Assembly: GCA_004431415.1 (NCBI GenBank)
Contig: QPMI01000652.1
Location: 19,959-83,958 of the forward strand
Source: Cyanophora paradoxa CCMP329
Taxonomy: Eukaryota > Plantae > Glaucophyta
DNA: 64,000 nucleotides
Direction: 5' to 3'
Below are positions 1 to 64,000 of this stretch, in pieces. Within the stretch, counting starts at the first letter, position 1, and every line of letters starts with the position of its first letter. Under the pieces are notes generated by a model. That model did not search any database. It was not told the origin of the DNA and worked only from the letters and a program-made list of their open reading frames with translations. The translations under genes were made by a program, and so were the position numbers.

Positions 1-3000
1 CGCTCCGAGGCCGCCCGCCTCTACGACGCCGAGGACCTGCGCCAGTGGGAGCTCAGGCGCGCCCGCGCCCGCGCCCGCTTCCCGGGCGACTGGAAGCGGG
101 CCTCGCGGTCGGCCGGCACGCGCGCCGTGCCCGGCATGGTCGACAAGAGGCGGTCCTCGTGGCGCGGCGCCGACGCCCTCGCGGCCGTCGTGAAGCCCTG
201 GATGGAGCGCAAGCTCGGGCCCGCGCTCACCGGCGCCCTGCTCGAGGCGGGGGCCGTGGACGTGAGCACGTGGAACCCGAACTGCGGGATGCGCGAGGAC
301 ACGCACTACCACGGCTGGACGCTGCGCTACCCGGTGGCGATCGCCGACCGGACCGCCCTCGTCGATCCCGCCCGCGGCGACGCCGTCGACCTCTGCACGG
401 CGCGGGCCGACCCCGCCATCGTCGCCTGGAACCGCGACTTCTACGCCTGGCTCCGCTCCGCCCTCGCCGAGGCCCTCTTCCTCGACCTCCCGGCCCTCCC
501 GCGCCCCGCCGGCGCCGGCGCCGACCTCGCCCGCCGGGCCGCCCCCAAGCGGAGGGCAGAGGGCGCCGGCGAAGAGGGCGGTCGGCCGCGCGGCCGCGGG
601 CCCAAGCGCCCCCGCCGCGGCGCGCCGGGCGCGACCGACCCGGCCGCCGCCGCCGCGGCGGCCGCGGTCGATCCGAGCGGGCCCGAGGTGCCGCCGGACC
701 GCCTCCGCCTCGCCCGCGCCGTCTACCCCGCCGAGAGCGGCCGGGAGTGGGAGCGCCAGGGCGGCGAGGTCGAGGCCTACGTCTCGCGCCCCGCCGGCGG
801 GCCCTGCCTCCACGGGCGCGTCCACAGCAGCCAGAACACGCGCCTCGCCGTCGCCCCGTTTGGGGCGTGGGGCGTGCTGGCGGGCTCCGCCCACTGCTTC
901 AGCCTCGCGTGCGCCGAGCGGCCGCTGCGGGGCGCCCTCGCCTTTGCCGAGGGGCTCCCCGCGCCGCCGCCGCCCGAGGCCGCCGAGGCCCTCGGCCGCT
1001 GGCTCCCGCTCCTCTCCGAGGCGGCCAACGCCGCGATCGCCGCCGCCCGCGCCGCCCGCGAGCTCCCGCCCCTCGTGCTCCCGGACGCGGCGGCGGCGCC
1101 GTACCCGGCCCGCGCCGACCTGGGCACCGACACCGTCGAGTACCGCGTCAAGGCCCCCTGCGCCCTCTGCGGCGACCGCCGCGGCCTCGTGCGCGTCGAC
1201 GCCCTCGAGGGGACGGCCCGCGCCCACGCCTGCGACGCCTGCGAGGAGGCCAAGGCGGCGGAGGCGGCGGCCGCCGCCGGCGCCGCCGGCTCGGGCCCGG
1301 GCCCGGGCCCAAAGGCGGCGCCCGAGGTCCGCCTGGGGCGCGCCTGGACCTCGTCGATCTCGGCCGTGCAGCGGGCCGTGCACCGCGCCACCGTCGGCGC
1401 CGCCGTCGCCGCCGGCCTCCTCCCCGCGTCGACGGGCCTGCTGGGGGCGACGGAGCCGCGGGCGACCCAGCCGCCCATGTCGGCGGCGCGCCAGAAGTTC
1501 GTGGCGGGGCTGGCGGCGCACCTTGAGGAGCGGCTGGCGGCCCCCGCCGGCTCCCCCGACGGGCCGACCCCCCTGGAGGTGGCGCCCGAGCAGGCGGCCC
1601 TCTGGGCCCGCGTCCCGCTCCCGAGCCTCGGGAGGCCGCTGGCGCCGCCGGCGGGGCGGCCCGACCTGGAGGCGGCGTGGCTGGGGATCGACGACGACGC
1701 CGGGGGCGAGGGGCCGAACCGGCGCTACGTCGACGGGGCGCGCATCTCCCGCGAGCTCGAGGGCCCCGAGGGGCAGGCGCGCACCCTCTTCCTGCGGGGG
1801 GGCATGGGGGACGGCAAGACGCGCGCCTGCGTCTCGATCTCCCGCGCGATCGTGGCCGACCCGGCCCGCTTCGGCGTCCGCTTCGCCGAGGGGCAGCGCT
1901 CCATCCTCTACCTCGTCGCGGGGCGGCTGCACGCGCCCGAGATTCAGCGGGACCCCGAGTGGGCGACGGTGGCGCGGTGGGTCTCGTACCGCGACGTGCG
2001 GGACGGGGCGCCCGACGCCGCCGCGCTCCTCAGCACCGTCGAGTCGGTCCGGCGCTTCGACGGGGTCTTTCCCGTCGTGATCCTCGACGAGGGGGCCAAG
2101 GCGATCGTGACGGCCGTCCTCTCGGAGACGCTGGCGCCGGAGGCGCGCCAGAACCAGGCCCTGGCGCGCCTGGGGCGCCTCCTGTGCGAGGCCTCCATCG
2201 TCCTCGTCTCCGACGCCGACCTCTGCCAGCACGACGTCGACTACTACCTCGCCCTGCGCCACCCGGCGCCGGCCGCGCCCGGCGCCGCCCGCGTCGTCTC
2301 CTACACCCTGCGCCCCGCCCCGCGGGGCCCCGCCGCGCGCCGCGAGGCGCTCGCGTACCCCCTGGGGATGGCGGGGGACATCGTGACGGCGCTCCTCCTC
2401 GGCGGCCGCCGCGTCGCCGTCGCCAGCTCGGACCGCCGCACCCTCTTCCGCACGATGGGCGCCGTCCGCGGCCACCCGGGCCTGCGCGGCGGCGGCGAGC
2501 GCGACCTCTACGTCTACGCCGACGCCCGCGCCGAGGAGAGGGCGCGGGCGCTGGACAAGGGACACGTCTGCCGCGAGGTGCGGCTCTTTGCGTACAACTA
2601 CGCCATCCACCAGGGGGCCGACTACACGGACCCCGAGCACCCGTACGACGTCCTCGTCATCGCCGAGTCGGGCCGCACGGGGAGCGTCGTGCAGCTCTGG
2701 CAGCTCGCCGGCCGCGTCCGCTGCATCCGCAGCGACCGCGTCATCCTCTGCGTCGGCGACGGCGGCGGCGGTCAGGAGGAGGACGAGAAGGCGGCCGAGG
2801 AGGAAGGGCGCGGGGGCGAGGGCGGCGACCCCGGGGAGACGGACCCGGAGGCGATCCTGGCGGCGCGGGAGCGGGCCCTGGAGGAGACCTGGGGCCGCCG
2901 CGGGCTCGCCGGCGACCTCGCCTCGCACGAAATGCGGGCGGCGCTGCGCGTGCAGGCGCACAAGCTGGCGGTGCTGCGGGCCTCGCGGGCCGACCCGCTG

Positions 3001-4837
3001 GTGGCCGTCCACATGCGCATGCTCGCCGCCGGCGCCCGCGGCGTCTTCCTCCCGGGCGGCGCGCAGCCCGCGTGGGACGAGGCGCTGCAGGCCGAGGCCA
3101 AGTGGGCCGCGGAGCGGGCCCTCGAGATCGAGATCGTCCTCCCGCACGCCGCGGCGCCGCCCCTCGCGCCGGGGCGCGAGGAGCGCGTGCAAGAGGCCAT
3201 GCACGGCCTCGGGGGCGACGTGGACGACGCCTCCGGCGGCGTCGCCGACGCGGAGCGGCGCGGGTACCGCCTGGGACGCGTCGCCGCCGACTACCGCCTG
3301 CGGGAGGAGGAGGTCGGGACCCCCGAGCTCCGCCTCGCCCTGCGGGCCCGGGACGCGCACCACGCGGCGCTGCGCGGCTACGGGGCCGCCTTTCTGGCGC
3401 ACATGGAGACGGTGGCGCACGTGCGGGGCCAGGACGGCGGGCGCAACATCCTCCCCGACGCCCCCGACGAGGCCCACTCGCGCCGCAGCGCCGCCCTCCT
3501 CCTCCTCGCCGCCGGCTGCGAGCCGCCCGTGACCCCGTCGGCCATCCTCTCGCCCCTCCCGGACCCCGACGCGGCGGCGGCGCGGCGGGCCGGCGAGGCG
3601 GCGCGCGCGGGGTGCCTCTTTGCAGCGCACCGGCGGGCGCCGCTCGTCGAGGCGGCCGAGCTGCTCGCGCTGGAGCCGGCGGCGCGGCCGGCCGACCGCC
3701 TCGCCGCCCTCGCCGCCGCCGCCGGCGCCGGCAAGGCGGAGCGCGGGGACCTCGAGCGCCTCGCCGTCCGCCTCGCCGCGGGGCTCGTGGCCCACGCCGC
3801 CGCCGCCCTGGGGGCCCGCGTGCGCGCGTTCAAGACGCCGGCGGTGCGGGCGAGGGCGGGGCCCGGCGGGGGGCGGACCACGATGCGCAGCCGCGACGAG
3901 CGCGTCTACGCCGAGGCGCGCATCGCCTGCGGGGCCCGCTGGGCGTCCAAGGTGGAGCTCGCGCCCAGCGACGCCTGCTGGGACGACTCGGAGGCGGCGG
4001 CGGCCGCCGGCGGGGCCGACCCCGCGCCCCTCTGGGCGGCGTACGGCGAGGGGTACTCGCCCGAGGGCGGGCACCGCTGGGGCCGCGCCCAGGCCCGCGA
4101 GGCGGCCGACCTCGCCAACCTGTGCGCCCTCGTCGCCCTCTCCTGCCGCCTCGCGTGGGGGGACCGCCCGGAGCGGACGGGGATCCTCCGGCTCCACCCC
4201 GAGGCGTACCTGGGGAGCGGGCGCGCCGCCTGCTGGCCGCCGCGGCCGCCGCGGGGGGCGCCGCCCCGGCCGAGGGGCCGAGGCCGTCGAGGGGCTCGCC
4301 GGGGCCGTCGCGGGGCTCGGGCCGGCCGAGCTCGCCGCCGTCGTGCGCGGCGGGTTCGCCGCCGACGCCCGCCTCGACGCCCTCGCCGCCCGCCTCGCCT
4401 CCGAGGCGCGCGAGGCGCAAGAGGCGAGGGCTCTGCGCGACGCGGCCGACGGGAGGCGGGCCGCCGGCGGGGCGCCGCCGGCGACGGGCGACCCGCGCGT
4501 CTCGGCCGAGGCCGTCGCCTGGTTCCTCCGCCGCCTGCACGAGTCCCGCTCGGACCCGGAGCGCTGCGTGCCGCACCCGCGCTCGCCGGCGCACCTGGTC
4601 TTTTTCCCCGAGCGGATCTTTGGCGCCGACGAGCGCCTCCCGGGGCCCAACGGCGTCGCGGTGCAGCGGGCGGGGCGGGCCTCGGGGCGCGACCTCTGCG
4701 TCCGCTGGGTCGACGAGAACAAGGCGCCCGCCCTCGCGATGCGCCCGGAGCGCATCGGGCCGCGCGGCGGGCAGCACCGCGGCCTCGGCGTGCCCCTCGC
4801 CCTCTTTGCCGAGATGGGGGTCGGCGGGCAGCAGTAG
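1..4837 (+). CDS. PrimPol/AEP primase-polymerase + Zn-finger + UL9/origin-binding-protein-like SF2 helicase (5' partial; apparent frameshift near 4250)
   Basis: Frame +1 is open from base 1. AEP-like motifs: KRRSSWR, and VDVSTWNPNCGMR (cf. PrimPol vD.svY..n..lR). PrimPol/UL52-type Zn finger: PCLHGRVHSSQN...HCFSLAC. Helicase motifs: Walker A LRGGMGDGKT, STVESVRRF, Walker B VVILDEG, motif III LVSDADL, motif V AIHQGADY, motif VI QLAGRVR. After ~4250 the sensible sequence continues in the frame of ORF 3620..4837 (AEAVEGLAGAV...EMGVGGQQ*). Confidence 0.85.
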
Positions 4838-5089
4838 GCCCCGGCCCGAAGAGCGCGGGGGGGTAGGCGAGCGAGCTTGTGGGATGCGTGTTACAAGAAA
4901 TTGAACCGGGCCGCGCGCCCTCGCGGCCGAGGGGCGGATCGAGACGAGGGGGGGGGGGGGGATGGAGATAGGGGGGAGGGGGGGGGAGGGAAAGAGGGGG
5001 GGGAGGGGGGCAGGGGGACGAAAGGGGTGGAAAGAGAGAGGAAGGATAGGCTTGGGGAGCGGGGGCGGCGGGGGGTACGGAAGGGGGCC

Positions 5090-6930
5090 GGGCCTCGCCC
5101 CTCGAAGCTCGCCTGGTCGATTCCGGCAACGGCGCCTGTACCCCTGGGAGGGCCCATGGGCCCTGCCGTGAGCTTGGGCGAGCGGCGGGGGGGCGGGGCG
5201 GGGCGGGGGGTACGGTCGGACCGAGCCTCGCCCCTGATGGCCCGCCTGGGCGATTCCGGCTACGGCGCCTGTACCCCTGGGCGGGCCCAGGGGCTCGTCG
5301 GTGAGGCGGGGCGAGCGGCGGCCGCGGGGAGCGGGCAGAGTGCGGCGTACGGGCGGACCAAGCCTCGCCCCTGATGGCCCGCCTGGTCGATTCCGGCTAC
5401 GGTGCCTGTACCCCTGGGAGGGCCCGTGAGCTCTTCGGTGAGGCGGGGCGAGCGGCGGCCGCGGGAGCGGAGAGAGTGGGGGGTAACGGACGGACCGAGC
5501 CTCGCCCCCTGGTAGCCCGCCTGGTCGATTCCGGCTACGGCGCCTGTACCCCTGGGCGGGCCCGTGAGCTCTTCGGCGAGACGGGGCGAGCGGCGGTCGC
5601 GGGGAGCGGGCAGAGTGGGGGGTACGGACGGACCGAGCCTCGCCCCTGATGGCCCGCCTGGTCGATTCCGGCTACGGCGCCTGTACCCCTGGGCAGGACC
5701 GTTGGCTCTTTGGTGAGACGGGGCGAGCGGTGGCCGCGGGGAGCGGGCAGAGTGGGGGGTACGGACGGACCGAGCCTCGCCCCTGATAGCCCGCCTGGTC
5801 GATTCCGGCTACGGCGCCTGTACCCCTGGGCGGGCCCGTGAGCTCTTCGGTGAGACGGGGCGAGCGGCGGTCGCGGGGAGCGGGCAGAGTGGGGGGTACC
5901 GACGGACCGAGCCTCGCCCCTGATAGCCCGCCTGGTCGATTCCGGCTACGGCGCCTGTACCCCTGGGCGGGCCCGTGAGCTCTTCGGTGAGACGGAGCGA
6001 GCGGCGGGGAGCGGAGGGAGTAGGGGGTACGGGCGGACCGAGCCTCGCCCCCTGATGGCCCGCCTGGTCGATTCCGGCTACGGCGCCTGTACCCCTGGGC
6101 GGGCCCGTGAGCTCTTCGGCGAGACGAGGCGAGCGGCGGGGAGCGGGCAGAGTGGGGGGTACGGACGGACCGAGCCTCGCCTCTGATAGCCCGCCTGGTC
6201 GATTCCGGCTACGGCGCCTGTACCCCTGGGCAGGACCGTTAGCTCTTCGGTGAGACGGGGCGAGCGGCGACCGCGGGGAGCGGGCAGAGTGGGGGGTAAC
6301 GGACGGACCGAGCCTCGCCCCTGATAGCCCGCCTGGTCGATTCCGGCTACGGCGCCTGTACCCCTGAGCGGGCCCGGGGGCTCGGCGGTGAGACGGGGCG
6401 AGCGGCGACCGCGGGGAGCGGGCAGAGTGGGGGGTACCGACGGACCGAGCCTCGCCCCTGATAGCCCGCCTGGTCGATTCCGGCTACGGCGCCTGTACCC
6501 CTGGGCGGGCCCGTGAGCTCTTCGGTGAGACGAGGCGAGCGGCGGGGAGCGGGCAGAGTGCGGCGTACGGACGGACCGAGCCTCGCCCCTGATAGCCCGC
6601 CTGGTCGATTCCGGCTACGGCGCCTGTACCCCTGGGCGGGCCCGGGGGCTCGGCGGTGAGACGGGGCGAGCGGCGGTCGCGGGGAGCGGGCAGAGTGGGG
6701 GGTACCGACGGACCGAGCCTCGCCCCTGATAGCCCGCCTGGTCGATTCCGGCTACGGCGCCTGTACCCCTGGGCGGGCCCGTGAGCTCTTCGGTGAGACG
6801 AGGCGAGCGGCGGGGAGCGGGCAGAGTGCGGCGTACGGACGGACCGAGCCTCGCCCCTGATAGCCCGCCTGGTCGATTCCGGCTACGGCGCCTGTACCCC
6901 TGGGCGGGCCCGTGAGCTCTTCGGTGAGAC
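5090..6930 (+). repeat. Array 1, type-A half: ~14 tandem units of ~131-138 bp, core CCTGGTCGATTCCGGCTACGGCGCCTGTACCCC
   Basis: Cores read near 5112 (degenerate), 5245, 5383, 5521, 5658, 5795, 5932, 6063, 6194, 6332, 6469, 6601, 6738 and 6868. Inter-core sequences are homologous to each other. Confidence 0.95.
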
Positions 6931-6989
6931 CCTCAAGAGAAGAGGCAGTGAGGGCGAGCGAGGGCGGGGGCGCACGAGGGGGTGCGAGA

Positions 6990-8425
6990 GGCCTAGGGGG
7001 TACACACGCCGTAGCCGGAATCAACCAGGCCGCCCCTACTGCGAGCCAGATGCTGCCGGCCGCACGGGGGGAAGAGTGAGCGAGGGCGGGGGGGCAAGGG
7101 AGGGGCGGGAGGCTCAATGGGGGGTACACACGCCGTAGCCGGAATCGACCAGGCCGCCCCTACTGCGAGCCAGATGCTGCCGGCCGCACGGGGGGCAGGG
7201 TGAGCGAGGGCGGGGGGGCAAGGGAGGGGCGGGAGGCTCAGAGGGGGGTACACACGCCGTAGCCGGAATCGACCAGGCCGCCCCTACTGCGAGCCAGATG
7301 CTGCCGGCCGCACGGGGGGCAGGGTGAGCGAGGGCGGGGGGGCGAGGGAGGGGCGGGAGGCTCAGTGGGGGGGTACACACGCCGTAGCCGGAATCGACCA
7401 GGCCGCCCCCTACTGCGAGCCAGATGCTGCCGGCCGCACGGGGGGCAGGGTGAGCGAGGGCGGGGGGGCGAGGGAGGGGCGGGAGGCTCAGTGGGGGGGT
7501 ACACACGCCGTAGCCGGAATCGACCAGGCCGCCCCTACTGGGAGCCAGCTGCTGCCGGCCGCACGGGGGGCAGGGTGAGCGAGGGCGGGGGGGCGAGGGA
7601 GGGGCGGGAGGCTCAGTGGGGGGGTACACACGCCGTAGCCGGAATCGACCAGGCCGCCCCTACTGCGAGCCAGCTGCTGCCGGCCGCACGGGGGGCAGGG
7701 TGAGCGAGGGCGGGGGGGCGGGGGAGGGGCGGGAGGCTCAGTGGGGGGTACACACGCCGTAGCCGGAATCGACCAGGCCGCCCCTTCTGCGAGCCAGATG
7801 CTGCCGGCCGCACGGGGGGCAGGGTGAGCGAGGGCGGGGGGGCGAGGGAGGGGCGGGAGGCTCAGAGGGGGGTACACACGCCGTAGCCGGAATCGACCAG
7901 GCCGCCCCTACTGCGAGCCAGATGCTGCCGGCCGCACGGGGGGCAGGGTGAGCGAGGGCGGGGGGGCGAGGGAGGGGCGGGAGGCTCAGTGGGGGGGTAC
8001 ACACGCCGTAGCCGGAATCGACCAGGCCGCCCCTACTGCGAGCCAGCTGCTGCCGGCCGCACGGGGGGCAGAGTGAGCGAGGGCGGGGGGGCGGGGGAGG
8101 GGCGGGAGGCTCAGTGGGGGGTACACACGCCGTAGCCGGAATCGACCAGGCCGCCCCCTACTGGGAGCCAGCTGCTGCCGGCCGCACGGGGGGCAGGGTG
8201 AGCGAGGGCGGGGGGGCGAGGGAGGGGCGGGAGGCTCAGTGGGGGGGTACACACGCCGTAGCCGGAATCGACCAGGCCGCCCCTACTGCGAGCCAGCTGC
8301 TGCCGGCCGCACGGGGGCAGGGTGAGCGAGGGCGGGGGGTCGGGGGAGGGGCGGGAGGCTCAGTGGGGGGTACACACGCCGTAGCCGGAATCGACCAGGC
8401 CGCCCCCTACTGCGAGCCAGCTGCT
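6990..8425 (-). repeat. Array 1, type-B half: ~12 tandem units of ~124 bp with the core inverted (GGGGTACACACGCCGTAGCCGGAATCGACCAGG on +)
   Basis: The reverse complement of the core recurs every ~124 bp and faces the type-A half. The spacer family differs from type A. Confidence 0.95.
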
Positions 8426-9387
8426 GCGAGAGGGTACGCGCCGCCGAGCGAGCGAGGGGGATGTCGGCGGCAGGGCCCGGGCGGGGGCGGGGGGAAAAGG
8501 AGGGGCGGGGGGTACACAAGCCGCACCAGGGACCGGCCGCGACGCCTAGGCCTGCGCTGCAGCCGAGATGCGCCTCGCGGCTTCGCAACGCGGGGCGGCC
8601 CGCGCCCGGGGCGTGCGACGACGCCGGGAGACGGCGGCCGCCGAAAAGAGGCGCGCCGGCCGAGCCTCGCTCGACGCGCCCTGCGGGGGGGCGAGGCTGG
8701 CGAACCGGGCTCGAGGCGCGGCGGCCCGGCGGCGCGGCAGGAGAGCGAGGCGCCCGGACCGCGCCAGCGCGGGCGCGGGCGCGCTCGCCGCAGCTGCTCG
8801 CCCCCGCACACGCCAGCGCGCTGCGCTCCCGGCGCCGCCCCGCCGCCCTGCGCCCCGGAGGATGAGCGCCCCGCTCGCGCTGGCGCGGAACGAGCCCTCT
8901 GCTTGCGCGGGCGGCCCGGCTGGCCGGCGGATGCGTGTGGCGGTGCGGCGCGGCCGCGGCGCGGCGGCGGTCCATAGCTAGGCGGAGCGGGGCGCCGGCG
9001 GGCGTGGGGCGCCGGCTCCCGGTGCCCTCGGCTAAGACGACCGGCGCCGGCATCCCGCCGGCCGGCCCTCGCGGGCGCGAGCCGCGCGCATCGCACCTGT
9101 TCGAGGCGCGCTCCGCGCCGGGGCGTCTCCTGAACCGCCCGGCCGGTCCTCGGAACGCGCAGCTGGTCCTGGAGCTACATGGACGGTGCAGAGGCGTCGC
9201 GCTGGCCGCGGCGCCGCGCGGCGCCGGCCGCGGACGAGAACTACATGCCAAAGGTCGCCGGGACGGCAGGACCGGCTCCGCGAGCGATCTACTGTACTCG
9301 GGAGCTCCAGAGCTCACGGGGGCGTCGCGGGGCCCGCGGCCGCCGGCGCCCCGCATGCAGCGTTTTTTCGGGGCCAGTTTGCAACGT

Positions 9388-9415
9388 TTCGATCGTGCGA
9401 CATCGCACGATCGAA
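9388..9415. other. Perfect 13-2-13 bp dyad TTCGATCGTGCGA-CA-TCGCACGATCGAA within a conserved ~70-bp element
   Basis: The arms are exact reverse complements. An inverted near-identical copy with flanks is at 52670-52697 and a degenerate copy at 24256-24277. Confidence 0.9.
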
Positions 9416-10639
9416 TTTCAACAGCACGCCACGCCGCGTGAGGGCCCTCCGGGGCCTTCCCTAGCCCTTGTGGAGCCCTAGAGTCACGTCGGCGCACGCG
9501 CGCCCCGCTCGCGCGCGCCGCAGCTGCAGTGCGCGTGCATCCGTACGCGCGCGCGACGTCGACCGAGTCGCGCATCGAAAGCCGTTTCAACCTGGCTCTG
9601 CCAACGAACCCAGAGTTTACGGGCCTTGTGACGTGCGCATCTGGATGCCTTGCGTACCGGCAGCCTCACCTGTTGACCCGCACGCGCGGGCGCGGCCTAG
9701 GCCTAGGTGGCCGAACCATATGCATATGCATGTGCATGCCGATCGACGATGGCCGGGACTCGGGAGGAGCGCCCACCTCGTGTGCCGCCGCTCGGGGTCC
9801 TGATCCATCACACTCTTAATATAAGCTTATAGCTAGCGAAAGTTTAAAGCTGCAGCTCGAGCTCGCAAGCATATGCATCCCGACCGGCCTACAGCGCTAG
9901 CTATAGCTCTAGATCTAGAGATCTCCACGTACTGTGACATGTACATGTACGTGTACATGTGCCGGCCGCGGGGCATGCGCATATGCATGCGCTGCGCATG
10001 CCGTCGCACACGCAGGTACCGCCCCCCTGCTCTCCGCACATGTACGTATACGTATACAGGCGCCGGCATACGTATACGTATACGCCTCGCGTGCGCTCTA
10101 GATCTAGATCCGATCCGCGCGCGCATCTCGAGTCTTCGACTAGTACTTGCAGTAAACGCCCCGCGCGCGCGGCGGCCCGCACCCTGCCGGGCCGGCGGCC
10201 ACTTGCGCCTACGAGACTCGGAACGGTACGCGCCCGCCGGCCTTGGCCTTGGCTCCGGATCCTCCCGAATAATAATCCCGATATCGATCCGGCAGCAGGC
10301 CCACGCGCACCCCGCCGCCGCCGCGGCCGCCCGCAGCGGCGCGCCGGGTCGGCGGCGGCCCGCGGGGCCAGGGGCGCCGTGCTTTGAAAGTCTGCGTGCG
10401 GTTTGCGATCGGTCCGGCCGCGGGGCCTCGGAGCCACGCGTGCCACGCGCCCCGGCCCCCCCGGCCCTCGTTCAGTTTGTTTTCTCCGGAATCCTGGAAT
10501 CGTTTTTTCTCCAGGCCGGCCGGGATTCCTGGACAGCGAGGGGCCGATAAAAGGGAGCGCCCCGCCCCGTTTTCGGCACTCCCCACCGCCCGTGCACGTG
10601 CCGCCCCCCGCCGCCCCCCACCAGTCGCCGAGCATCGAG

Positions 10640-10993
10640 ATGCACATGCTGCCCGTCAAGGCTCTCCGTACCCCCGCCCCCCCTTGCGCCGGCGCCCGGC
10701 GCCCCGCCCCGCGCCCGCCCGCCATCGCCGTCGCCCTCGACGCCCTGGAGCTCTTTCTGCGAAACGCGCCCCTACCGCCCCCGCCTCCCCCGCCGGCGCC
10801 GGCGCCGGCCACCGCCACGCTCAAGCCCGGGCCCACGGCCGGGCGTCCCGCCGGCGCCGCCCCCGGCCGCCCGCGGCTTTTCAGAAAGGAGATCGTGAAG
10901 AAGCGCCGCGTGTGCTGCAGCTTGTGCGGATGCCCGGTGCGCGCCCGGTCCCCCCCCCCCCCCCCCCCCCCCCCCCCGTTTCTCCAGAAATGA
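10640..10993 (+). CDS. Small Pro-rich hypothetical protein with C-terminal basic/CxxC motif
   Basis: ATG at 10640 follows CGGGATTCC (10521) and GATAAAA (~10546). Contains RKEIVKKRRVCCSLCGC. The 3' end runs through a poly-C tract and is uncertain. Confidence 0.4.
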   Translation: MHMLPVKALRTPAPPCAGARRPAPRPPAIAVALDALELFLRNAPLPPPPPPPAPAPATATLKPGPTAGRPAGAAPGRPRLFRKEIVKKRRVCCSLCGCPVRARSPPPPPPPPPFLQK

Positions 10994-11488
10994 AACAAGC
11001 ATCGCTGACCGCAACGGCTCGCGCAGGGTCGCAACAAGCGGTCCCACGAGCGAGGCCGGAAGCCTCACGCTTGCTTCTATAATTTCTATGTACAGCCAGC
11101 GGCCGGACGGATCGTCCCACGTAGCATGAATAGTATATTTTCCAAATCTGTATAAGCGGGTGATGAATTTGAATGGTTGTGTCGATTTGAAACGCAACGC
11201 AACGACGAGGCTATCGGAGGTAGCGAGTATGCATATGAATGCCGCGGTCATCGGCTCCTCCTGGGAGCTCGAGCCGTGATCACGATTAGCGTCCGGGATT
11301 CCCGTCGGTCGTTTTTGAGAGGGGGCCGGGCCGCGGCCGGGAATCCCGCGCCGCGCCAGCCCATGGCCATGCCCACAAAATGGGAGCGGGCCCGAGGTGC
11401 AGCGTCATTTGCGTTTCGCGAAAACTCGGGAGGGGATCGATCTTGCAATTGGATGTCGACCGCACGTTGCTTCACCCCGCTCGTGCCC

Positions 11489-14682: not shown

Positions 14683-14763
14683 CGTACACGGCTACCAGCA
14701 ACGCGACGCGTCGACTTTGCATTTTTCATCCGCAGTTCGCCGCATTCATGTTCATATTGCATC

Positions 14764-17166: not shown

Positions 17167-17206
17167 ATGGCCCCTGCCGCACCCGCCCCGGCTTTTGCCG
17201 GCCCCA

Positions 17207-50830: not shown

Positions 50831-50917
50831 CTCTTTGAGAGACGGGGGCGAGCGGTCGGAGGGTGCGGAAGCGCGCGAAGGGGTGGGTCGAGAGGAAAGG
50901 CAAACGACAGCGTTAGC

Positions 50918-52050: not shown

Positions 52051-52669
52051 GGCCAGCTGCCGCGGCCGTGCGGGCCGCCGAAGGAGCAACGAGGGCGGGG
52101 GGCGCGCGAGGGGCCGCGCGGAGCGGGGCAGCGGGCCGAGGAAAAGGGGGCGGGGCTCGCTGCAGCCCGAAGAAGCGGACCGAGCGCGGTGCCGGCCGAC
52201 TCGGTGATCGTCTTGCTCGCCGGACCCGGTGCGCCCGCACTCCTCCCCGCGTAGCGCTTCGCGAGGGTGTGGCGGAGAAGCGCGCGGGTCCGCACGCTGC
52301 GCGCCGGCGCCGCACGCGGCGGCCGCGGGACCGATCGATATCGACGGCCGGAGGCGCGCAGGCGGAAAAGCGCGGAAAGTGCGCCTTGGGCTCCGGCTGC
52401 GTCTGCGCTACCGCCCGAGCGCGGCGCCGTGCGCGCCGAGCTCGGGTGCCCAGCATGTGCGAATAGGGCACGCATACGTGAGCTTGTGGGCCGGAGAGGC
52501 ATCGGAGGGGCGCTGCGGATCGATCGCTAGCCATGGCCATGGGATCTTCGACTCAGTGACTGCGCCCGACCCGAGCACGAGCCGGGCGGGCGCCGACGCG
52601 ATTTTCGAGCTCAACAGGAGCCAAGGACTGCGCCAGAGGGCACTCGCGCGACGCGGCGTGCTGTTGAAA

Positions 52670-52697: not shown

Positions 52698-53654
52698 ACG
52701 TTGCAAACTGGCCCCCCCCCCCCCCGAAAGAGCTGCGCTTTGGGCCAGCGTGCGTGCACGCGCTCGCCGAGCTGCGGCGGCAGCTGGCGGCACGCGGTGC
52801 GCGTGCTCGAGCCTCCAGGCTCCAGCCGCACGGCTGCGGCGAGTCTCTGGGTACACGCATTTCCACCGCCGGGCGGAAAAGCACGCTAGAGCCACAGCGA
52901 TCCCACGCACAGAGAGCAGCGGACCCCGAGCCGCGCTCGTGCGGGCGCTCGGACGCGCCCGAGCCGCGAGCCTCCCTTCTGCTCTCCCGAGAGATCTAGA
53001 GCCACGCCTCCGGCGGTTCCAGCTACCCGTGCGGTTCATGCGCCTCCCGTCGGTCGTAGCCTGCTCGGCGGCCGCGGCCCGCAGGCAACTTTCGATCCGC
53101 CGCGGCTGACGTGCGCATGCCTCTGTACATGTCCCTCGCCCCGGCCCGCAGGGCGCCGACGCCGGATTAAGTTTTTGCGCGCCCGCGAGCTCTTCCTGCG
53201 TTCAGTTCGAATCCAAAGCGGCTCATGCCTACGCGCGCCCGCGCGCCCCGGCCGGGCCCGCCCCGCCGGAGCCGGCCGGCGCTCAACCGGCCCAGGCCTC
53301 GGCGCCGGGCCGCGGCGCCCCGTCGCCCAGAGCGGATCGCCTGGTGCGCTTCGGGCCGCCTGCTCGGGGGCGGGACGCGCGGCAGCGGCCTGGCGAGGCC
53401 GGGCGCGGGGACGTCGGTCGGCACGGGGAGCCGGCCGATGCCCTGCGGCGGCGGCGGCGCAAGCGGCGGCGGGGCGTCCATCGCGAGGTTGAGCGCGGCC
53501 CGGCCGGGCGCCGCGCCCGTGGCGGGCGAGAGAGGGCCCCGCTTCGAGCGTCCCCTCTGGATCCGCTTCCCCGCCAACGCCAAGCCCTCCGCAGCCGGCC
53601 CGCCGGGCGAGCCAAGAGCGCCCGGGGCCTCGTGTGGGGGTGCGCCCGAGCACG

Positions 53655-55452
53655 GCGGGCCTGGTCCGTCCGTACCCCCCGCTCTCCCCGCCCCCCGCCG
53701 CTCGCCGCGTCTCACCGAGGGCTCGCGGGCCCGCCCAGGGGTACAGGCGCCGTAGCCGGAATCGACCAGGTGGGCCATAGGCGGCGGGGGGCTGGTCCGT
53801 CCGTACCCCTCGCTTCCCCCGCACCCTCTGGCCGCTCGCCGCGTCTCACCGAGAGCTCGCGCGTCCGCCCAGGGGTACAGGCGCCGTAGCCGGAATCGAC
53901 CAGGTGGGCCATAGGCGGCGGGGGCCTGGTCCGTCCGTACCCCCCGCTTCCCCCGCACCCTCTGGCCGCTCGCCGCGTCTCACCGAGAGCTCGCGCGTCC
54001 GCCCAGGGGTACAGGCGCCGTAGCCGGAATCGACCAGGCGGGCCATAATCGGCGGACCCGGTCCGTCCGTGCCCTCTGCTCGCCCCGCCCCCCGCCGCTC
54101 GCCTCGTCCCACCGACGTGCTCGCGGGCCCACCCAGGGGTACAGGCGCCGTAGCCGGAATCGACCAGGCGGGCGATAAGCGGCGGGCCCGGTCCGTCCGT
54201 ACCCCCGCTCCCCTGCACCCTCTGGCCGCTCGCCTCGTCTCACGAGGGCTCGTGGGCCCGTCCAGGGGTACAGGCGCCGTAGCCGGAATCGACCAGGCGG
54301 GCCATAACCGGCGGGGCCCGGTCCGTCCGTACCCCGCTCGCCCCACCCCCCGCCGCTCGCCTCGTCTCACCGGCGTGCTTGCGGGCCCGCCCAGGGGTAC
54401 AGGCGCCGTAGCCGGAATCGACCAGGCGGGCCATAACCGGCGGGGCCCGGTCCGTCCGTACCCTGCACCCTCTGGCCGCTCGCCTCGTCTCACCGAGAGC
54501 TCGCGAGCCCGCCCAGGGGTACAGGCGCCGTAGCCGGAATCGACCAGGCGGGCCATAAGCGGCGGGCCTGGTCCGTCCGTACCCCCCGCTCTCCCCGCCC
54601 CCCGCCGCTCGCCGCGTCTCACCGAGGGCTCGCGGGCCCGCCCAGGGGTACAGGCGCCGTAGCCGGAATCGACCAGGCGGGCGATAAGCGACGGGCCTGG
54701 TCCGTCCGTACCCCCCGCTTCCCCGCACCCTCTTGCCGCTCGCCGCGTCTCACCAAGAGCCTCGCACCCGCCCAGGGGTACAGGCGCCGTAGCCGGAATC
54801 GACCAGGCGGGCGATAAGCGGCGGGGCCCGGTCCGTCCGTACCCCCGCTTCCCCTGCACCCTCTGGCCGCTCGCCTCGTCTCATCGAGAGCCCGCGGTCC
54901 GCCCAGGGGTACAGGCGCCGTAGCCGGAATCGACCAGGCGGGCGTTAAGCGGCGGGCCCGGTCCGTCCGTACCCCGCTCCCTGCACCCTCTGGCCGCTCG
55001 CCTCGTCTCACCGAGGGCTCGTGGGCCCGTCCAGGGGTACAGGCGCCGTAGCCGGAATCGACCAGGCGGGCCATAACCGGCGGGGCCCGGTCCGTCCGTA
55101 CCCCCGCTCGCCCCCACCCCCCGCCGCTCGCCTCGTCTCACCGGCGTGCTTGCGGGCCTGCCCAGGGGTACAGGCGCCGTAGCCGGAATCGACCAGGCGG
55201 GCCATAACTGGCGGGGCCCGGTCCGTCCGTACCCTGCACCCTCTGGCCGCTCGCCTCGTCTCACCGAGAGCTCGCGAGCCCGCCCAGGGGTACAGGCGCC
55301 GTAGCCGGAATCGACCAGGCGGGCCATAAGCGGCGGGCCCGGTCCGTCCGTACCCCCGCTTCTCCCCGTCCCCCGCCGCTCGCCTCGTCTCACCGAGAGC
55401 TCGCGGCCCGCCCAGGGGTACAGGCGCCGTAGCCGGAATCGACCGGGCGGGT
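53655..55452 (-). repeat. Array 4: ~14 type-A units on the minus strand, with no adjacent type-B half
   Basis: GGGGTACAGGCGCCGTAGCCGGAATCGACCAGG recurs every ~122-138 bp. Confidence 0.95.
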
Positions 55453-55737: not shown

Positions 55738-58061
55738 ATGGCGTCGCAGCCGGCGTCGGGGGCCCAGGTGACGAGCCCGCGGGGCGCGGCGGGCGGCGCG
55801 TCCGGCTGCCCGCCCCTCGACTCGCGGCCGGCCAAGGTCAGCCTCCCCGCGTTCATCAGCCTGGGGCGGGACCCGCTCCTCTCCTGCCGCCCGGCCTGCG
55901 CCCGCTGCAAGTCGGAGCGCATCCTCCCCCGATCCTCCTCTCCTGCGCCGCCGCCCGCCTCCTCGCCAAGACCGGCGCATCGTCCGTCAACGAGGCCTGG
56001 ACGCCCACCCGCGCCCGCCTCGACGACCTCAAGTTCAACTCGACCGGCTCGTTCGTCTGCCTCAGCTGCGCCCTCACCCTCCTCTCCGTCAGCGCCGAGG
56101 GCGGCGCCTCGCCGCCCCTCTTCACCTGCCCCAGCTGCGGCGACCCCCACCCGGCCGCCTCGGGCCTCGTCTGCAGCTCCCGCATCGACGCCCTCTTTTC
56201 CTTTCTCGCCTACATCGACGACGCCGCCTTTGCCGCCTCGTGGATCTCCGGCGACCTCTGCCTCCGCACGGCGCTCACGTACGCCCTCGAGCGCTTCCAG
56301 GCGGCCGCCGCCCAGGCCCGCGCCCCGCCGCCGCCGCCGGCGGCGGCCCCGCCCCGGCCCCGCGGCCCCCGCCGGGCGGGCCCGAGCTCGGGCTCCGGCT
56401 CTGGCCCCGAGCCGCCGCCCCGTCCGACGGATCCGCGCCGCCGCCCAGCCGCCGGCGCGGCGGCCGCCCCCTGGCCCCGGGGAGCCGGCCGCGGGCGCCA
56501 AGGCCCAGGGCGGCAAGAAGCGCAAGGAAAAGGGCGCCGCCTTGGGCCCGGGCCGGCCGCCGAGGAGGAGGGGAGGAGAAGGAGGAGGAGGGGCGGCCAC
56601 CGGGCCCTCGCGATCGCGCGCCAAGCGCGCCGCGACGTCGACCAAGGGCCCGGCGCGGGGCGAGTCGGCGGCCGAGCAGGAAGAGGGGGAGGACGGCGCC
56701 GAGGAGCGGGCGCTGGAGCGGCGCAAGACGCTGCGCCCGCCCAAGCCGGCGAGCTCCCCCGACCCCGAGGCGGCGTCGGCGTCGGCCTCGGCGCAGGGCG
56801 CCGGCCCGGGTCCGGCTCGGGCGCCGGCCCTCGAAGCCGGCGCGGCGGGCGGCGCGGAGCAAGTGGGGCGCCGGGCGCGACCGCCGCAAGGAGTGGGAGT
56901 CGGACAAGCTCATCCGCGTCCTCTACAACGCGTACACGCGCCCCAAGGACGAGGACGCGCGCTCCGAGTCGGAGGGGGCAGCTCGGCCGGGAGCGGCGGC
57001 GGCGGCGGCGGCAGCAGCGGCGGCGGCGGCAAGGGCAAGGGCAAGGGCAAGGCGGCGGCGGCCCCCTCGCCATCGAGGCGGGCCCGAGGGCGGCGGGGGC
57101 GGCGGCGGCGGCTCGGGCAGCGAGGAGGACGGCTCGCGCGCCGGCTCGCCGGACCGCGGGCAAGGAGCTCGCGGAGCGCTGGCGCAAGGCCCTCGCCGAG
57201 GCGGAGCGGGCCGAGGGCGGCGCGGACGACGCCGACGAGCTCGCCGAGGGCCCCGCCGGGGCGGGGGCGAGGCGAGGGCGGGCTCGACCCAGAGTCGCTG
57301 GAGGCCTACGACTTTGGGCTCGAGGCGGGGATCGACCCGGGGCTCATCGGGCGCCAGATCGACGCCAGCCCCGAGGCCGCGCGGCCCTCCTGAACCGCAT
57401 CGAAGAGGCGGGGCGGGAGCGGATCCGCTGCATCATGCTCATCGCCTGCTCCGTCCTCGCCGTCCACCAGGCCTACACGGAGCGCTACGGCCGCAACCGC
57501 CGCCTCTGGGGCGCCTACCGCGCCGAGCACCTCTGCGCAAAGTACGACCACATCCTCCAGGCGGCCGGCTTTCGCCTCGAGGTCAGCGCCCAAAAGGTGA
57601 GGTCGCTTCGAATTCCCTGCGGGAGGAGGGGGCGGGGGCGGGCCCCTAGCGCTAGCTGCAAGCACGCGTGCCCGGCCCGGCGTGCTTTCAACGTCGCTCA
57701 CCGGAGGCTCGCGCAGTCCGAGATCTACAACGACCTCGCGCGCTGGGAGAGACGCTCACGAGGTTCCCTGGCCTGGCGCGCGTCTGCGGGAGCGGCATAT
57801 CGGTCGTCGACTTTGTCAGCTGCTCCCGCTCCTGAAGGGCTGCACGAAAGAGGGGCGGACCAGATCCGGGAGCGGCTCGCGGAAGAGGTGCAGCGCGCCA
57901 AGGGCTTTGTCTTTGACGGCTCGGTGCTGGAGCTTCGGAGGCCGGCGAGAGCGACGGGGACGGGGACGGGGACGAGCAGAGCGAGGCGTCGGGCGAGGAA
58001 GGGGCCGCCGAAGGCGCCGGCGAGGCCGGCGCCAAAGGCGACTGACCGGCAACGAAAATAG
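55738..58061 (+). CDS. RING-like protein with basic/G-rich linker and conserved C-terminal domain (paralog of 25260-28162); frameshifted
   Basis: TATA-like ATATATAG near 55648. Motifs CRPACARCKSERILP/PILLSC...GSFVCLSC...FTCPSCG and WGAYRAEHLCAKYDHILQAAGFRL. Probable intron ~57597-57716. Confidence 0.65.
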
Positions 58062-58479: not shown

Positions 58480-59560
58480 TCAGGCGCTCTCGGTGTCGGC
58501 CGCCGTGTCTCCCTTCAAGCGTCGCGCAAGATCCGTGTCTGCAGGGCTGTCCAAATTCAAGGATCAGGACAGTCGCGATTAGCATCAATCCGAGCGTGAC
58601 ATTATAATTAAAGAAGCAGCCTGGCAGAGGGAGCTTAAGCCATGCTTATAATTATAGTTATAATCAAGGGACGGAAGAGGCACTGCAGCATTTGTAATCA
58701 AAAATAGGGCAAGACCTTACGCGTGCGCACCCGACCGTGACTCGCTTGCGGTGCTTGGCCGCGAGGACACCACCCTCGAACCAGCGAATGATGTGCGCCT
58801 CGGCGGCCTCGCGAATGGCTTGGATAGTGTCCTGCAAGACATGAAATACTAATCAGCCAGCTATTCGCACCCCCCCGCGCCCGGCACTGCGGCACGGGCG
58901 CGCACCTTTGTGAACCGAAAGTTAACAGATTGTTCACGAAGACCGGCCTCCACGTCTTCCTTGATCATCGCGGCCGTGAGCTCGCGCACCTGCGCACGTG
59001 CACGCGCCGCACAGCAGGGCACAGGGCTCGGCGGCAGAGGATAGTTTCAAGTTTTGAAGGGCCCCCACACGTACCAGGCGGCCGAACGGGGCCAGCGGAA
59101 TGAGGGCATTGTAGGTCTTCTGGTACCTGAACAGGAGCGGGGTTTCATTCAGAATTTATTTGTCACAGATCTAAATAGATTTAAACAAGAGTGAAATAAA
59201 AAACATTGAACGTACTTCACAATTTCGCGCTTTGCCACCGTCCCAGGGCGATGGCTGCGCGAGCGAGCGATTCTCACGTGCCGGGACTTTCTCTTCAAAA
59301 TAAAACGTAGGGAAGAGAGCAGGCCGACCGGAACGGCTTTCTCACTCCGCCCTCGCCCACAGCCTTTTTCCGCGCGGCTTTGGTCTTGAGGCCGCTGGCG
59401 CCGGAGCTCTTGAATGCCTTTCGCGGGGCCTTGTTTCCGGTGCCACGCTTGGCAGTTTGCTGCAAAATATAATTACAATGAACGAACTCGAAAGAACTAA
59501 GAATCGCAGATATGAATTCAGCGGCTTTCATGATCATTTTCCCACCTTGATGCGGGGCAT
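58480..59560 (-). CDS. Divergent histone H3-like protein, 7 exons
   Basis: Spliced at GT-AG sites it reads MPRIK|QTAKRGTGNKAPRKAFKSSGASGLKTKAARKKAVGEGGVRKPFR|HRPGTVAKREIVK|YQKTYNALIPLAPFGRL|VRELTAAMIKEDVEAGLREQSVNFRFTK|DTIQAIREAAEAHIIRWFEGGVLAAKHRKRVTVG|PADTDLARRLKGDTAADTESA*. This is colinear with canonical H3 throughout. Confidence 0.92.
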
Positions 59561-60697: not shown

Positions 60698-63414
60698 ATG
60701 TTCAGCGTGGTCAAGGACGCCTACGAGGTCGCCGAGTTCGACGGCCTGTGGGGCCGGGACCGCCTGATCCTGCTGCGCTCCGACGCCGGCCTCGTCGTGC
60801 CCGTCGCCGAGCTGCGCCGCATCCTCATCTACGCCCCCGATGAGCCGCCGGAGGACCCCGACCGGGCGCTGGCGGACCTGTACCGCGTCCCCTGCAGGCC
60901 CGTCGCGAGCGAGGAGACGATCCTGCTGCTCGAGATGCTCGGCGTGATCCGCCGCGGGGCGCACCGGCCCGACGGGAGCCCGCCGCGCGTCGTCTCCCTC
61001 CGCCACGCCGAGCAGATCGTGTGCGAGCGGTGGGACGAGGACCCCGGGGTGAGCGCGAGGAAGCGGTGCGTCGCCCGCCACATCCCGCCGCGATCGAGCG
61101 CCGCCGGCTCGAGTCGTTCGAGCGCGTCGAGCTCCGCGTCCTCCGCCTCGGCCCTCCAGCGCCACCGCGTCTTTGCCCTCCGCTGCAAGCGCATCGAGGT
61201 CCCGTGAGCGGCGCCCCCGACCAAGCACCGCCCCGGCGCCCCGCCCGCCCCGCGCCCCACGCTCACCCGGCCTCAGGACGTCGAGTGGTACGCGCCCATC
61301 GCGTCCCTCGCGCAGGCGGCGTACGGCTCCTCGCGGGACGTCCCTCGCTGCGGGCCGAGATCAGGCGCAAAGCACCCCGACCTCGGGGCCGACTCGCCTT
61401 TTCGCTTCGAGGCACGGACCGACGTCGTCGGGCGGGCCCGCTTCGCCCTCCTCACCAAGGCGCGCGCCCGCCTCCCGCCTCCCGACGCGCCCGGGCGCCG
61501 GCTGATCGATATTGTGACCGCCCGCGGCCGGGGGGTCAGACGCTGACGCTGTACGCCGGGCTGAACGCCGAGGTCGAGGGCGAGGCGACGCGCGGGGCGG
61601 CGCGCAAGTGGGGCTTCATCAGCCTCGCCGGCGCCGAGAGGATCCTCCAGGGCCTGCCGCGCTTCGGACGAGCTCCTCGTGCCGTTCCGCCGCCAGCGCC
61701 TCGCCTCGAGGGCGCCGACGCCGCCGAGATCGAGGCCGCGCCGCTGCCCCTCGCCCCCGCCCGCCGCATCGCCATCTTTACGAAGCGCGAGTGGCTCACG
61801 GTAAGCAGAGGGACGCGCGGGGCCGGGGCGCGGGATCGAGGCGGAGGGGCCGGGGGCGCTGACGCGGGCGGCGGCGGCAGGACCAGCACATCGCCAACTG
61901 CCTCTCGATCGTGCTGGCGCGGGCCAGCGCGGCGCCCCGCGTCCGAGCCCTGTACCCCATGACGCTCGACATTGCGACGAGCCTCCTGCCGCCGCCACGC
62001 GCGCGCCAGCCCCGAGAAGCGCCGGCGCCGCGCCCTGGGGGCGGCGGAAGGAGGGGCGCGTCATCCTCTGCCCGTCTCGGGCGGGCTCGTGCGCGCGGGT
62101 CGGAGCGAACCTGGAGCGCGGGGGGCCACTGGACGCTCCTCGTATCTCCGGCGACCTGCGCCGCACCCGCTACTTTGACAGCCTGGGCGCGCGCCCGGAC
62201 CCGTCGCTGGAGCGGGCGGCGAAAAAGGCCTTTCCGAACTTTGAGTTCGAGGTCGAGACGCAGCTGCGGCTGCAGGCCGATGGGTACCAGTGCGGCATCT
62301 GTGCGCGCCCGCCGCCGCTCAGCGAGTGGTACCGGTACGGTGCAAGGGGAAGGACGCCGACGCACCCGTGCGCGCGCAGGGGTCCTCTACTTTGCGGAGA
62401 GCGTGGTGAGCGAGGCGCTCCTCGGCTTTCCCTGGGACGACGAGCTGCGCACCGGCGCCCTCCACTACCTGCGCACCAAGTCGCCCTCGTACGAGGAGAG
62501 AAAGGCGATCAACGGGCGCTTCATCGCGGGAAAGAGGGAGCACTTTCGGAGCCTGCTCGAGTCGGCGCTCGTCGGCGACGTCTACCTCTTCTGCGAGGCC
62601 GACGTCGCCGATCCGGAGCGCGTGACGCTCCCGCCGCCGGCCGCCGCGGGCGAGGCCGCCGCCGCCGCCGCCGCCGCCGCCGAGGGGAGGCCCCGCCGGC
62701 GGGCGGACGGGGGGCCGCTGGTCATCTCCTCGTCCTCTTCCTCGTCGTCCTCGTCGTCCGCCCCGTCCGACGAGGCCGACGAGGCCCAAGGCGGGGCCGC
62801 GGACGGCGGCGCCGACGGCGAGGCAGAGGGCCTGGAGCTGGAGGCGGCGCCGGAGGCGAGCGAGGGCGAGGGCGAGGGCGAGGGGGCCGCAGAGGGCGGG
62901 CGGTCGCGCCCGGAGCCGTACGCGCTGCCGGAGGGCGAGTGGAGCCGCGAGCTGCGGGCGCAGATGAAGCTCTTCGAGGAGTGGAGGACGAGGGCGATCA
63001 ACCCGGACCGCGCGGGGGCGGCCGTCGAGCGGAGCACGGCCCTGACGAACGACGTCGGTGAGCGGGCGCGGCGGCGGCGGCGGAGATGCATATGGGCGGG
63101 GCGGGGGACGGAGGAAAGGGGGCTCACGGGGAATCGACGCAGGGACGGTGGGGCGCTTCCTGGGGTACCTGGCGGCGAGGGAGGAGGTCAGACCGCTCTC
63201 GTTCGACGTCTTCTCGCGGGGGGACCTGATCGACCTGTGGATGCGGTTCCTGACGTTTCTCAAGGAGGAGAGGAAGCTCACCGCGGGGACGCTGAGCGGC
63301 TACACCAGCTCGATCATCATGGCCGCCGCCTTTGTGCACTCGAGGACGGGCGCCGCGACGGGGAGCGAGGGCCCGCACGCCCGCGCCCTGAAGAACGTCA
63401 AGGTCAGAGGCGCT

Positions 63415-63459
<45 letters not shown>

Positions 63460-64000
63460 GGAGGAGAGGGCGGAAGAGGGTCGGGGCGGGGCTACGAACC
63501 CGACGCCCGCCCGCCCGCAGGCGCAGCTGGAAAAGGAGAAGCGGGAGGAGCGCAAGTGGCGGCCGCGGGGCGAGAACTGGGTCGAGTACGAGCAGGTCCT
63601 GGGCGCCCGGCTCGCCGCCCTCGAGCAGTACGAGGGCGCGAAGACGGACTACGAGCGGGCCCAGGCCCTCCGCGAGGCCTGCCTCCTCGGCTTCCTCGCC
63701 GTCACGCCGGCCCGCGTCGGGATCATCCGCCGCCTGCGCGTGGGGGTGAGCCTGCGGCGCGACGCGGGGGCGTGGTGCATCGTCATCGACTCGATGCGGG
63801 CGGACGACGGGACGGGGGAGATGGCCCTCGCGAGCAAGACGGCCCGCTTCCACGGGGCCCTCTCGATCCCCGTCGCCGCCGTCCTGCAGGAGCCGCTCAC
63901 CCTCTTCGTGGAGCGCTTCCGCCGCCTCCTCATCCCCGACGGCGCCCCCGACCAGCAGTGGCTCTTCACCAGCTCGAGCGGCGGCGTCCTCAGCGAGAGC
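60698..64000 (+). CDS. Multi-exon fusion: N-terminal putative DNA-binding repeats + Ulp1/SENP (C48)-like protease + tyrosine recombinase (3' partial)
   Basis: TATA near 60619. Protease motifs: REWLT|DQHIANCL, GHWTLLV, RYFDSLG, QADGYQCG (1-nt frameshift near 62143). YR core-binding region: RFLGYL...FLTFLKEERKLTAGTLSGYTSSI. YR catalytic region: NWVEYEQV...LLGFLAVTPARVGIIRRL...SKTARFHG...WLF. The HxxR and Tyr motifs lie beyond the window. Confidence 0.8.
63424..63462 (+). repeat. (GA)n microsatellite in an intron of the recombinase gene
   Basis: Direct reading of the sequence. Confidence 0.9.

Follow-up and report, generated by a model that had tools for sequence, protein, structure and literature searches.

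What kind of genetic entity occupies a 64,000-nucleotide stretch of the genome of the glaucophyte alga Cyanophora paradoxa CCMP329 (assembly GCA_004431415.1, contig QPMI01000652.1, positions 19,959 to 83,958 of the forward strand; the whole stretch is called here the window), in which a predicted primase-helicase, arrays of a repeat core, a TFIIB-like gene, a histone H3 variant and a protease-recombinase gene lie together? A preliminary description of this DNA had proposed a single giant replicon, either an endogenous large DNA virus or a giant element mobilised by a tyrosine recombinase (YR). Our results suggest, with a probability that we put at roughly 55%, that the window is an internal part of a multi-copy mobile element, likely of large-DNA-virus descent, with predicted nuclear replication and YR-mediated integration. 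Its features are collected in Table 1.

Table 1. Features of the window, in order along the forward strand
Feature	Position	Strand	Details
Archaeo-eukaryotic primase (AEP), zinc finger, UL9-like superfamily 2 (SF2) helicase	1..4866	+	Gene model P0001, 1811 aa
Array 1, back-to-back	5070..8427		14 type-A cores, minus (131-138 bp spacing), then 12 type-B cores, plus (123-126 bp)
Non-coding block	9370..9502	+	Inverted copy at 52583-52715, 84% identity
Cassette of short, mostly intronless open reading frames (ORFs) behind TATA-like boxes	10547..20798	
Two isolated type-B cores	14532..14682	+
ORF, Skp1-like in the preliminary description	15597..16220	+	Label unconfirmed
73-aa Cys/His ORF with its own TATA box	16634..16855	+	TFIIB zinc-ribbon likeness by eye only; no hidden Markov model support
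TFIIB-like core, both cyclin repeats	17167..18138	+	323 aa
573-aa intronless ORF, function without assignment	18831..20552	-	98% identical in the second copy
Array 2, back-to-back	21136..23383		8 type-A cores, minus (158-167 bp), 8 type-B cores, plus (121-124 bp)
Gene Z1, spliced	25260..28162	+	Cys-rich N-terminus, acidic/basic middle; C-terminal motif common to Z2
Low-GC block (56%), spliced genes	28400..48200	
AAA ATPase	~32.3-35 kb	-	In the low-GC block
Ankyrin-like ORF	44302-45531	-	In the low-GC block
GC-rich spliced gene, function without assignment	48327..50140	+
Array 3, back-to-back	50382..52113		4 type-A cores, minus, 10 type-B cores, plus
Array 4	53653..55451	+	14 type-A cores, orientation inverted relative to arrays 1-3
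Gene Z2, spliced	55738..58061	+	Cys-rich N-terminus (RING-like in the preliminary description, unconfirmed)
Histone H3 variant	58690..59560	-	At least 6 exons, in-phase GT-AG introns, intact
N-terminal domain, Ulp1-type protease, tyrosine recombinase, spliced	60698..64000	+	Cut by the window end

The primase-helicase and its relatives

The gene model P0001 starts about 217 codons upstream of the window, and motifs I and II of its AEP domain lie just upstream of position 1. On the helicase protein Pfam gave a weak primase match alone (LigD Prim-Pol, E 0.0098), and a helicase profile searched against the PDB returned herpesvirus origin-binding proteins as all four of its best matches (E 3e-4 to 9e-4). 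The alignment of the relatives displays a four-cysteine finger and the SF2 motifs, and AEP motifs I and II are intact in five of the seven family members checked. An alignment-based structure model (mean pLDDT 63; a single-sequence fold gave 36) matched viral UL9-type helicases of mimiviruses, marseilleviruses, Clandestinovirus and herpesviruses in BFVD (E 5e-13 to 1e-9), and in the PDB the origin-binding protein of herpes simplex virus 1 ranked first. Judged by its SF2 motifs and by the modelled fold, which is nearest to UL9, the predicted protein belongs with the UL9-like origin-binding helicases, and the AEP-UL9 assignment first made by inspection stands.

A full phmmer search of 1.84 billion representative proteins gave 12 matches, every one from C. 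paradoxa, from nine contigs. The helicase cores form several subfamilies that are 26-40% identical, three of them present as pairs 95-100% identical. At least five further subfamilies are found among P0013-P0021 on other C. paradoxa contigs, two subfamilies are without AEP motifs (tig00020539/tig00000104 and tig00000042), and a third helicase copy, on tig00021536, is frameshifted. The tree of these proteins, with eight rows and long branches and with P0016, P0003 and the AEP-only fragments left out, shows subfamilies only. Since the relatives are all from C. paradoxa and diverge to this degree, they are not host orthologues. One contig also carries two identical helicase cores at a distance of 23 gene models, and another carries members of two different subfamilies at a distance of 15.

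The repeat arrays and the H3 variant

A single repeat core had been said to connect loci from 5 to 55 kb, and the count over the whole window does find 72 copies of a 19-nucleotide core, at three mismatches or fewer, between 5114 and 55445. Aligned on this core, a stretch of about 32 bp shows conservation in 90% or more of the units, excepting four positions that separate sub-types A (n = 40) and B (n = 32), while the spacers between cores reach a conservation of 30-60%. This constant box amid drifting spacers, in a fixed dyad layout, has from its sequence the appearance of protein-binding arrays, as we infer. Baculovirus homologous regions, herpesvirus origins and plasmid iterons likewise combine multiple arrays of a short conserved box with a nearby gene for an origin-binding helicase. 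The window shares this arrangement with them, but its boxes, in what would be putative origins, are non-palindromic, spaced 113-167 bp apart overall, and of two sub-types set back to back. Both copies of the non-coding block lie about 0.95 kb from an array.

Measured in the sequencing runs, the core numbers about 50-150 per element-depth, near the 72 counted in the window, and at most 120-720 per stray-contig depth, a value near 72 times the apparent copy number of the element; this estimate is rough, is inflated by stray matches, and excludes run X1 (arrays not recovered). A satellite of thousands of independent copies is excluded by these values, and the repeat core is no high-copy genome-wide satellite. 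The bin that holds the two lone cores reached a depth of 790 in run X2 and of 6146 in run X8. A scan of IMG/VR with the core gave no match; the single metagenome match (L001) had only a 21-mer in common with it and was treated as chance.

Could the window instead be a host segmental duplication, for example centromeric or subtelomeric, made of a satellite, a host centromeric H3 (CenH3) and a few decayed viral genes? In Meloidogyne, divergent tandem repeats with a common short conserved box are reported to be centromeric (PMC8097292), and spliceosomal introns occur throughout the window. The H3-like gene, whose prediction is upheld by a Pfam match (2.4e-5) and by its introns, bears on the same question. 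Its loop 1 is about 12 residues longer than the canonical one and a Gly stands at the position of Gln 69 (Q69), both read by eye from the exon translations, whereas it retains a Thr at T118 (by alignment), a Phe at F85 (by eye) and an H3-like tail; a tool search with the exons read by eye gave no alignment. CenH3 proteins are described as having an extended loop 1 and as having lost Q69, F85 and T118 (PMC4359364), and of these four marks two, the loop and the loss of Q69, are present, so we class the gene simply as an H3 variant. A search with its last exon found no full-length protein. The core abundance close to the window's own count, the lack of any housekeeping gene among the frames scanned from the 64 kb, the helicase family without a member outside C. 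paradoxa, and an H3 with an H3-like tail that keeps two residues usually lost in CenH3s all oppose a host duplication, which we consider highly improbable.

A second copy and the read depth

Ten window proteins were looked up by exact sequence (EukProt naming); five were present, and three clusters or neighbours gave a second copy of the region on the C. paradoxa contig tig00020509. There g9749 (the 573-aa ORF), g9750 (the Skp1-like ORF merged with TFIIB), g9756 (the helicase) and g9764 (the recombinase) match window genes at 95-99% identity (~98%). The linkage concerns these four genes. The differences between the copies include real substitutions (57 isolated); methylation-type decay was negative overall, as five of the 54 single-base amino-acid changes are possibly CpG transitions, four of them in one gene. 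Counted by gene number (strands are not given), the recombinase of the second copy is eight models from the helicase, on the flank opposite to TFIIB; in the window it is found 56 kb downstream of the helicase, past TFIIB. A circular or head-to-tail map would explain the differing position, and a rearrangement would explain it equally. A simple inversion between arrays 1 and 4 was considered and does not give the gene order of the second copy.

Of 24 listed runs, 14 contain all sampled words of 28.5-38.4 kb, all of them with one organism label and dates from 2012 to 2024; 13 are flagged as possible sources, and none of the listed runs containing this DNA is recorded as RNA, which says nothing on expression. 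Over 23.6-43.5 kb the depth of the long contigs is 83-85 in run X2, 143-199 in X4 and 364-531 in X8, and the stray-contig medians are 31 (n = 18), 49 (n = 17) and 99 (n = 31), respectively; these medians were read off contig tables, with rows of two merged contigs and a few high values left out. The ratios of element to stray depth are thus 2.7-2.8 in X2, 2.9-4.0 in X4 and 3.7-5.3 in X8, so that the raised depth anticipated for such an element is seen in X4 and X8, at about three to five times the stray contigs, and is unclear in X2. Depth in the low-GC block matches that of its GC-rich flank; provided that the baseline holds, the block therefore moves with the element and is no single-copy host DNA. 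The depth drops 1.4-fold at about 32450, inside the AAA ATPase gene, in X4 and X8 and not in X2, which suggests a partial copy in some cultures; among the contigs listed, none carries the alternative junction. In the TFIIB cassette two variants coexist at similar depth in runs X1, X2 and X8 (281 of 517 at 11135-11198 in X8). The alga is reported as likely haploid (PMC6704402).

The preliminary description had treated the window as one entity and had named the opposite case, scattered host orthologues with a core repeated genome-wide. The renewed linkage of four genes in the second copy, a helicase confined to C. paradoxa, the raised depth along both stretches examined and a core that is not high-copy all speak for one entity and against that case.

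These data also bear on whether the DNA might be a persistent extrachromosomal virus genome, or episome, carried in the culture without ever integrating and assembled into contigs of its own. The run contigs display no host junction over the 31.6 kb examined, the raised depth is run-dependent and non-integer, and circular mirusvirus genomes have been reported inside algal and protist assemblies (10.1101/2024.01.18.576163). Yet the recombinase of the second copy has all its catalytic motifs, two variants stand side by side in three runs, and helicase copies on other contigs are split or frameshifted, as decaying insertions would give, although assembly errors could do the same. We therefore think a never-integrated episome distinctly unlikely.

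The protease-recombinase gene

P0004, the model of the last gene, terminates with the final codon of the window, which suggests that the contig ends at this point. A Ulp1 protease joined to a YR had been predicted for this gene, and the fusion itself is supported. The protease, of the Ulp1/CE-clan type, matches Pfam C48 (0.005, in the second copy) and the PDB (6e-4), and the recombinase has an Atlas score of 0.97 for 30 matches. Its SUMO specificity is putative; the best PDB matches of the protease are deubiquitinase/deneddylases. The Atlas clusters nearest to the recombinase are eukaryotic and viral (Preplasmiviricota), with one more in which 17% of members carry Phage_integrase. All five catalytic residues (R, K, R, H, Y) are present in the second copy, P0005, and the first two only in the window copy; the second-copy model goes on through the remaining part of the recombinase to a terminal GIY-YIG nuclease (E 4.6e-7), possibly a genuine fusion, possibly two genes joined in the model.

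No Pfam Phage_integrase match was obtained for the recombinase of P0004 or P0005, and no match of the recombinase was found in the IMG/VR scan or among phage records. Starship and Crypton elements are recognised by a DUF3435 captain or a Crypton-type YR at the element end; neither gave a Pfam match at E ≤ 1 for P0004 or P0005, and the ends of the element lie outside the window.

Virion genes and the question of a capsid

Of the 453 selected stop-free frames of the window, 450 were scanned against Pfam (three short ones were dropped), and nine had any match at E ≤ 0.01, none of them to a capsid, polymerase or housekeeping protein.

Several results weigh against an integrated element of viral descent. 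No capsid, portal, terminase, packaging ATPase, family B DNA polymerase (PolB) or RNA polymerase gene was found among the 450 frames, in keeping with the absence of capsid and PolB noted at the outset, nor among 21 proteins compared with PHROGs or 26 compared with NCBIfam; this negative is weak, since short exons and remote or intron-split capsids escape such libraries and only part of the element is visible. The helicase is just 9-18% identical to its viral matches in BFVD, and the NCBIfam family CyRepA1, a cyanobacterial plasmid initiator, matches the helicase domain (E 3.5e-7 for the paralogue P0016, 0.013 for P0001), so that a viral ancestry of the helicase is not unique. The most GC-rich element contigs of run X2 have a depth of 26-37, the same level as the stray median of 31, and the excess in that run could therefore be due to GC bias; contig depth, moreover, is no copy number. 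There is no host junction or attachment (att) site in the window; integration is therefore a prediction. What stands of the original choice between an endogenous large virus and a giant YR element is a multi-copy single entity, which would integrate and may be either a virus with capsid genes elsewhere or a capsid-less element.

Part of this evidence would suit a capsid-less, self-replicating nuclear element, plasmid-like or a giant YR transposon, that never makes particles, in which the AEP-UL9 initiator and the iteron arrays would drive copying, the recombinase would insert the element and the remaining genes would be cargo. No virion gene is seen in 64 kb, the cores are iteron-like with variable spacers, the helicase also matches a plasmid Rep family, the changed side of the recombinase relative to the helicase in the second copy is what a circular map predicts, and the depth differs from run to run, with the 1.4-fold step in X4 and X8 and not in X2. 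However, the element runs past both window edges, a TFIIB, a histone, an AEP-UL9 protein and a Ulp1-type protease together make a large-virus gene set, and remote or intron-split capsid genes would have escaped the libraries used. We regard such an element as possible, if on the unlikely side. A bolder form of the idea, which we find doubtful, would be a class of capsid-less, self-replicating giant nuclear elements in a glaucophyte, as circles of about 80-100 kb, initiated at the arrays by a primase-helicase of their own, mobile through a protease-fused YR and served by a long-loop H3 variant that would act on the arrays for private segregation or chromatin, with several ancient subfamilies coexisting in one genome.

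For the mobile element of likely viral descent that we favour, we propose that replication would begin with the AEP-UL9 protein binding the ~32-bp cores and unwinding the gap between back-to-back arrays, that the AEP would prime synthesis, and that a host polymerase would extend it, as no PolB was seen. A circle would be moved into and out of chromosomes by the recombinase. YR-mediated integration has been shown for phaeoviruses in Ectocarpus (PMC13236599) and proposed for endogenous nimaviruses, DNA viruses of crustaceans (PMC10871703). TFIIB and promoters with GGGAWTCCC and TATA boxes would drive a co-regulated gene cassette, and the H3 variant and the protease may adjust chromatin and ubiquitin-like marks. 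Its virion genes would be located beyond the window or have diverged past recognition.

The TFIIB cassette and other genes

A promoter motif common to several genes had been predicted, and the palindrome GGGAWTCCC indeed has 10 matches against 1.06 expected, a number reached in none of 100 shuffles; all lie within 11295-20696, mostly upstream of TATA-like boxes. The TFIIB-like gene is likewise borne out (NCBIfam 1.4e-7; PDB 2.5e-4). Over 16634-18138 TFIIB is seemingly split into a zinc-ribbon-like ORF and a cyclin-core ORF with a TATA box before each, and a paralogous model has a splice acceptor just before the start of the cyclin-core ORF. The ORF at 15597-16220 differs from the second copy by one nucleotide at 16023, which puts the two out of frame. 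The Skp1-like label first given to it drew no Pfam, PHROG or PDB match and is not confirmed, nor is the RING-like label of Z2, for which a sub-threshold treble-clef finger match (E 0.0037) was all that appeared. The 573-aa ORF has no match in the PDB or the Atlas. A 44-bp tandem duplication lies at 12955-13047, upstream of a 113-aa ORF. Run X16, RNA by guess, is without cover of the cassette, which says nothing on expression.

Z1 and Z2 share, besides an acidic/basic middle, a C-terminal motif (36% over 36 aa, pairwise E 2e-4), and Z2 is probably a paralogue of Z1. Each comes after an array. From their sequences the two are candidate array-binding or tethering proteins. Within Z1 an exon-intron unit is duplicated at 26167-26688 (87% over 160 bp).

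The GC content of the window is 50-81% in 2-kb bins, and Rfam and tRNA scans of it gave no matches. At the step from low to high GC, a short region between CAAGCC/GGCTTG-rich inverted repeats (47660-48260) is a candidate for a small non-autonomous transposon. A 175-nucleotide contig of depth 428 from run X15, taken as RNA by guess only, maps to 24301-24475, about 0.9 kb past array 2, and had no Rfam match and no folding signal; a second piece, of depth 78, maps to 28873-29450.

Comparison with known systems

Among the algae that founded plastids the glaucophytes form a deep branch, and our searches turned up next to no literature on DNA viruses of theirs. The words 'virus' and 'viral' are absent from the C. 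paradoxa genome paper (PMC6704402), and the main text of a mirusvirus host survey (10.1101/2024.01.18.576163) mentions neither Cyanophora nor glaucophytes. The claim that the element is undescribed holds for this gene set and these arrays, which we did not find in the literature covered (subscription journals lay outside it), and needs qualifying more generally, since giant endogenous viral elements have been reported in C. paradoxa from methylation and best-hit data (PMC12344493). Those share with ours the species and clusters of genes of viral ancestry, but in the text available they are defined by best Nucleocytoviricota hits and no contig is named for comparison. A replication protein without a detected relative outside one species, and with several subfamilies within it, is a sign of an ancient lineage of large nuclear DNA parasites that has so far escaped sampling. 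As the host is cultured and reportedly haploid and the depth differs between runs, excision, origin binding and copy-number control are directly testable.

The order of an AEP followed by a UL9-type SF2 helicase, with intact AEP motifs, is that of the fusions reported from mimiviruses (R8), African swine fever virus (pF1055L), the oyster herpesvirus and some mriyaviruses and Yaraviridae (PMC11253617), from which the window helicase differs by its 9-18% identity to the BFVD matches. An AEP-fused helicase and a TFIIB-like factor are common in Nucleocytoviricota and not diagnostic of them, and the markers of that group (double jelly-roll capsid, A32 ATPase, PolB, VLTF3) were not found in the 450 frames, which hold short exons of a partial element.

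With the giant endogenous viral elements that use a YR (PMC13236599, PMC10871703), of which nimaviruses are reported in concatemer or episome forms (PMC10871703), the element shares its nature as a large multi-copy DNA element of a eukaryotic genome with its own YR. It differs from them in the fusion of the YR to a Ulp1-type protease and in the GIY-YIG nuclease of the second copy's model, and no capsid, PolB, family marker or att site was seen. Polinton-like viruses share the GIY-YIG nuclease and the Preplasmiviricota among the recombinase's nearest clusters, but they measure 14-40 kb (PMC12220804), whereas linked element genes fill 64 kb here and run off both ends; the element is also spliced, encodes TFIIB and H3, and yielded no capsid or packaging ATPase. 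Mriyaviruses differ in size (35-45 kb against at least 64 kb) and in their HUH endonuclease and jelly-roll capsid, neither of which had a Pfam match in the 450 frames.

Nuclear, intron-rich mirusviruses (Okeanovirales, Styxvirales) are reported to have histones and no PolB (PMC12768974). The HK97 virion module, TBP, heliorhodopsin, Snf2 and Snf7 of mirusviruses were not found in the window, in searches that used no mirusvirus profiles, and the main text of that report does not mention any helicase, TFIIB, Cyanophora or glaucophytes. What the element has in common with these viruses, as described there, are spliceosomal introns, a histone, a basal transcription factor and Cys-rich finger proteins, with no PolB or RNA polymerase seen in the window. 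We assign it to none of the mirusviruses, Nucleocytoviricota, polinton-like viruses or mriyaviruses; if a capsid is truly absent, it would correspond, in eukaryotes and at the scale of giant viruses, to integrative plasmids.

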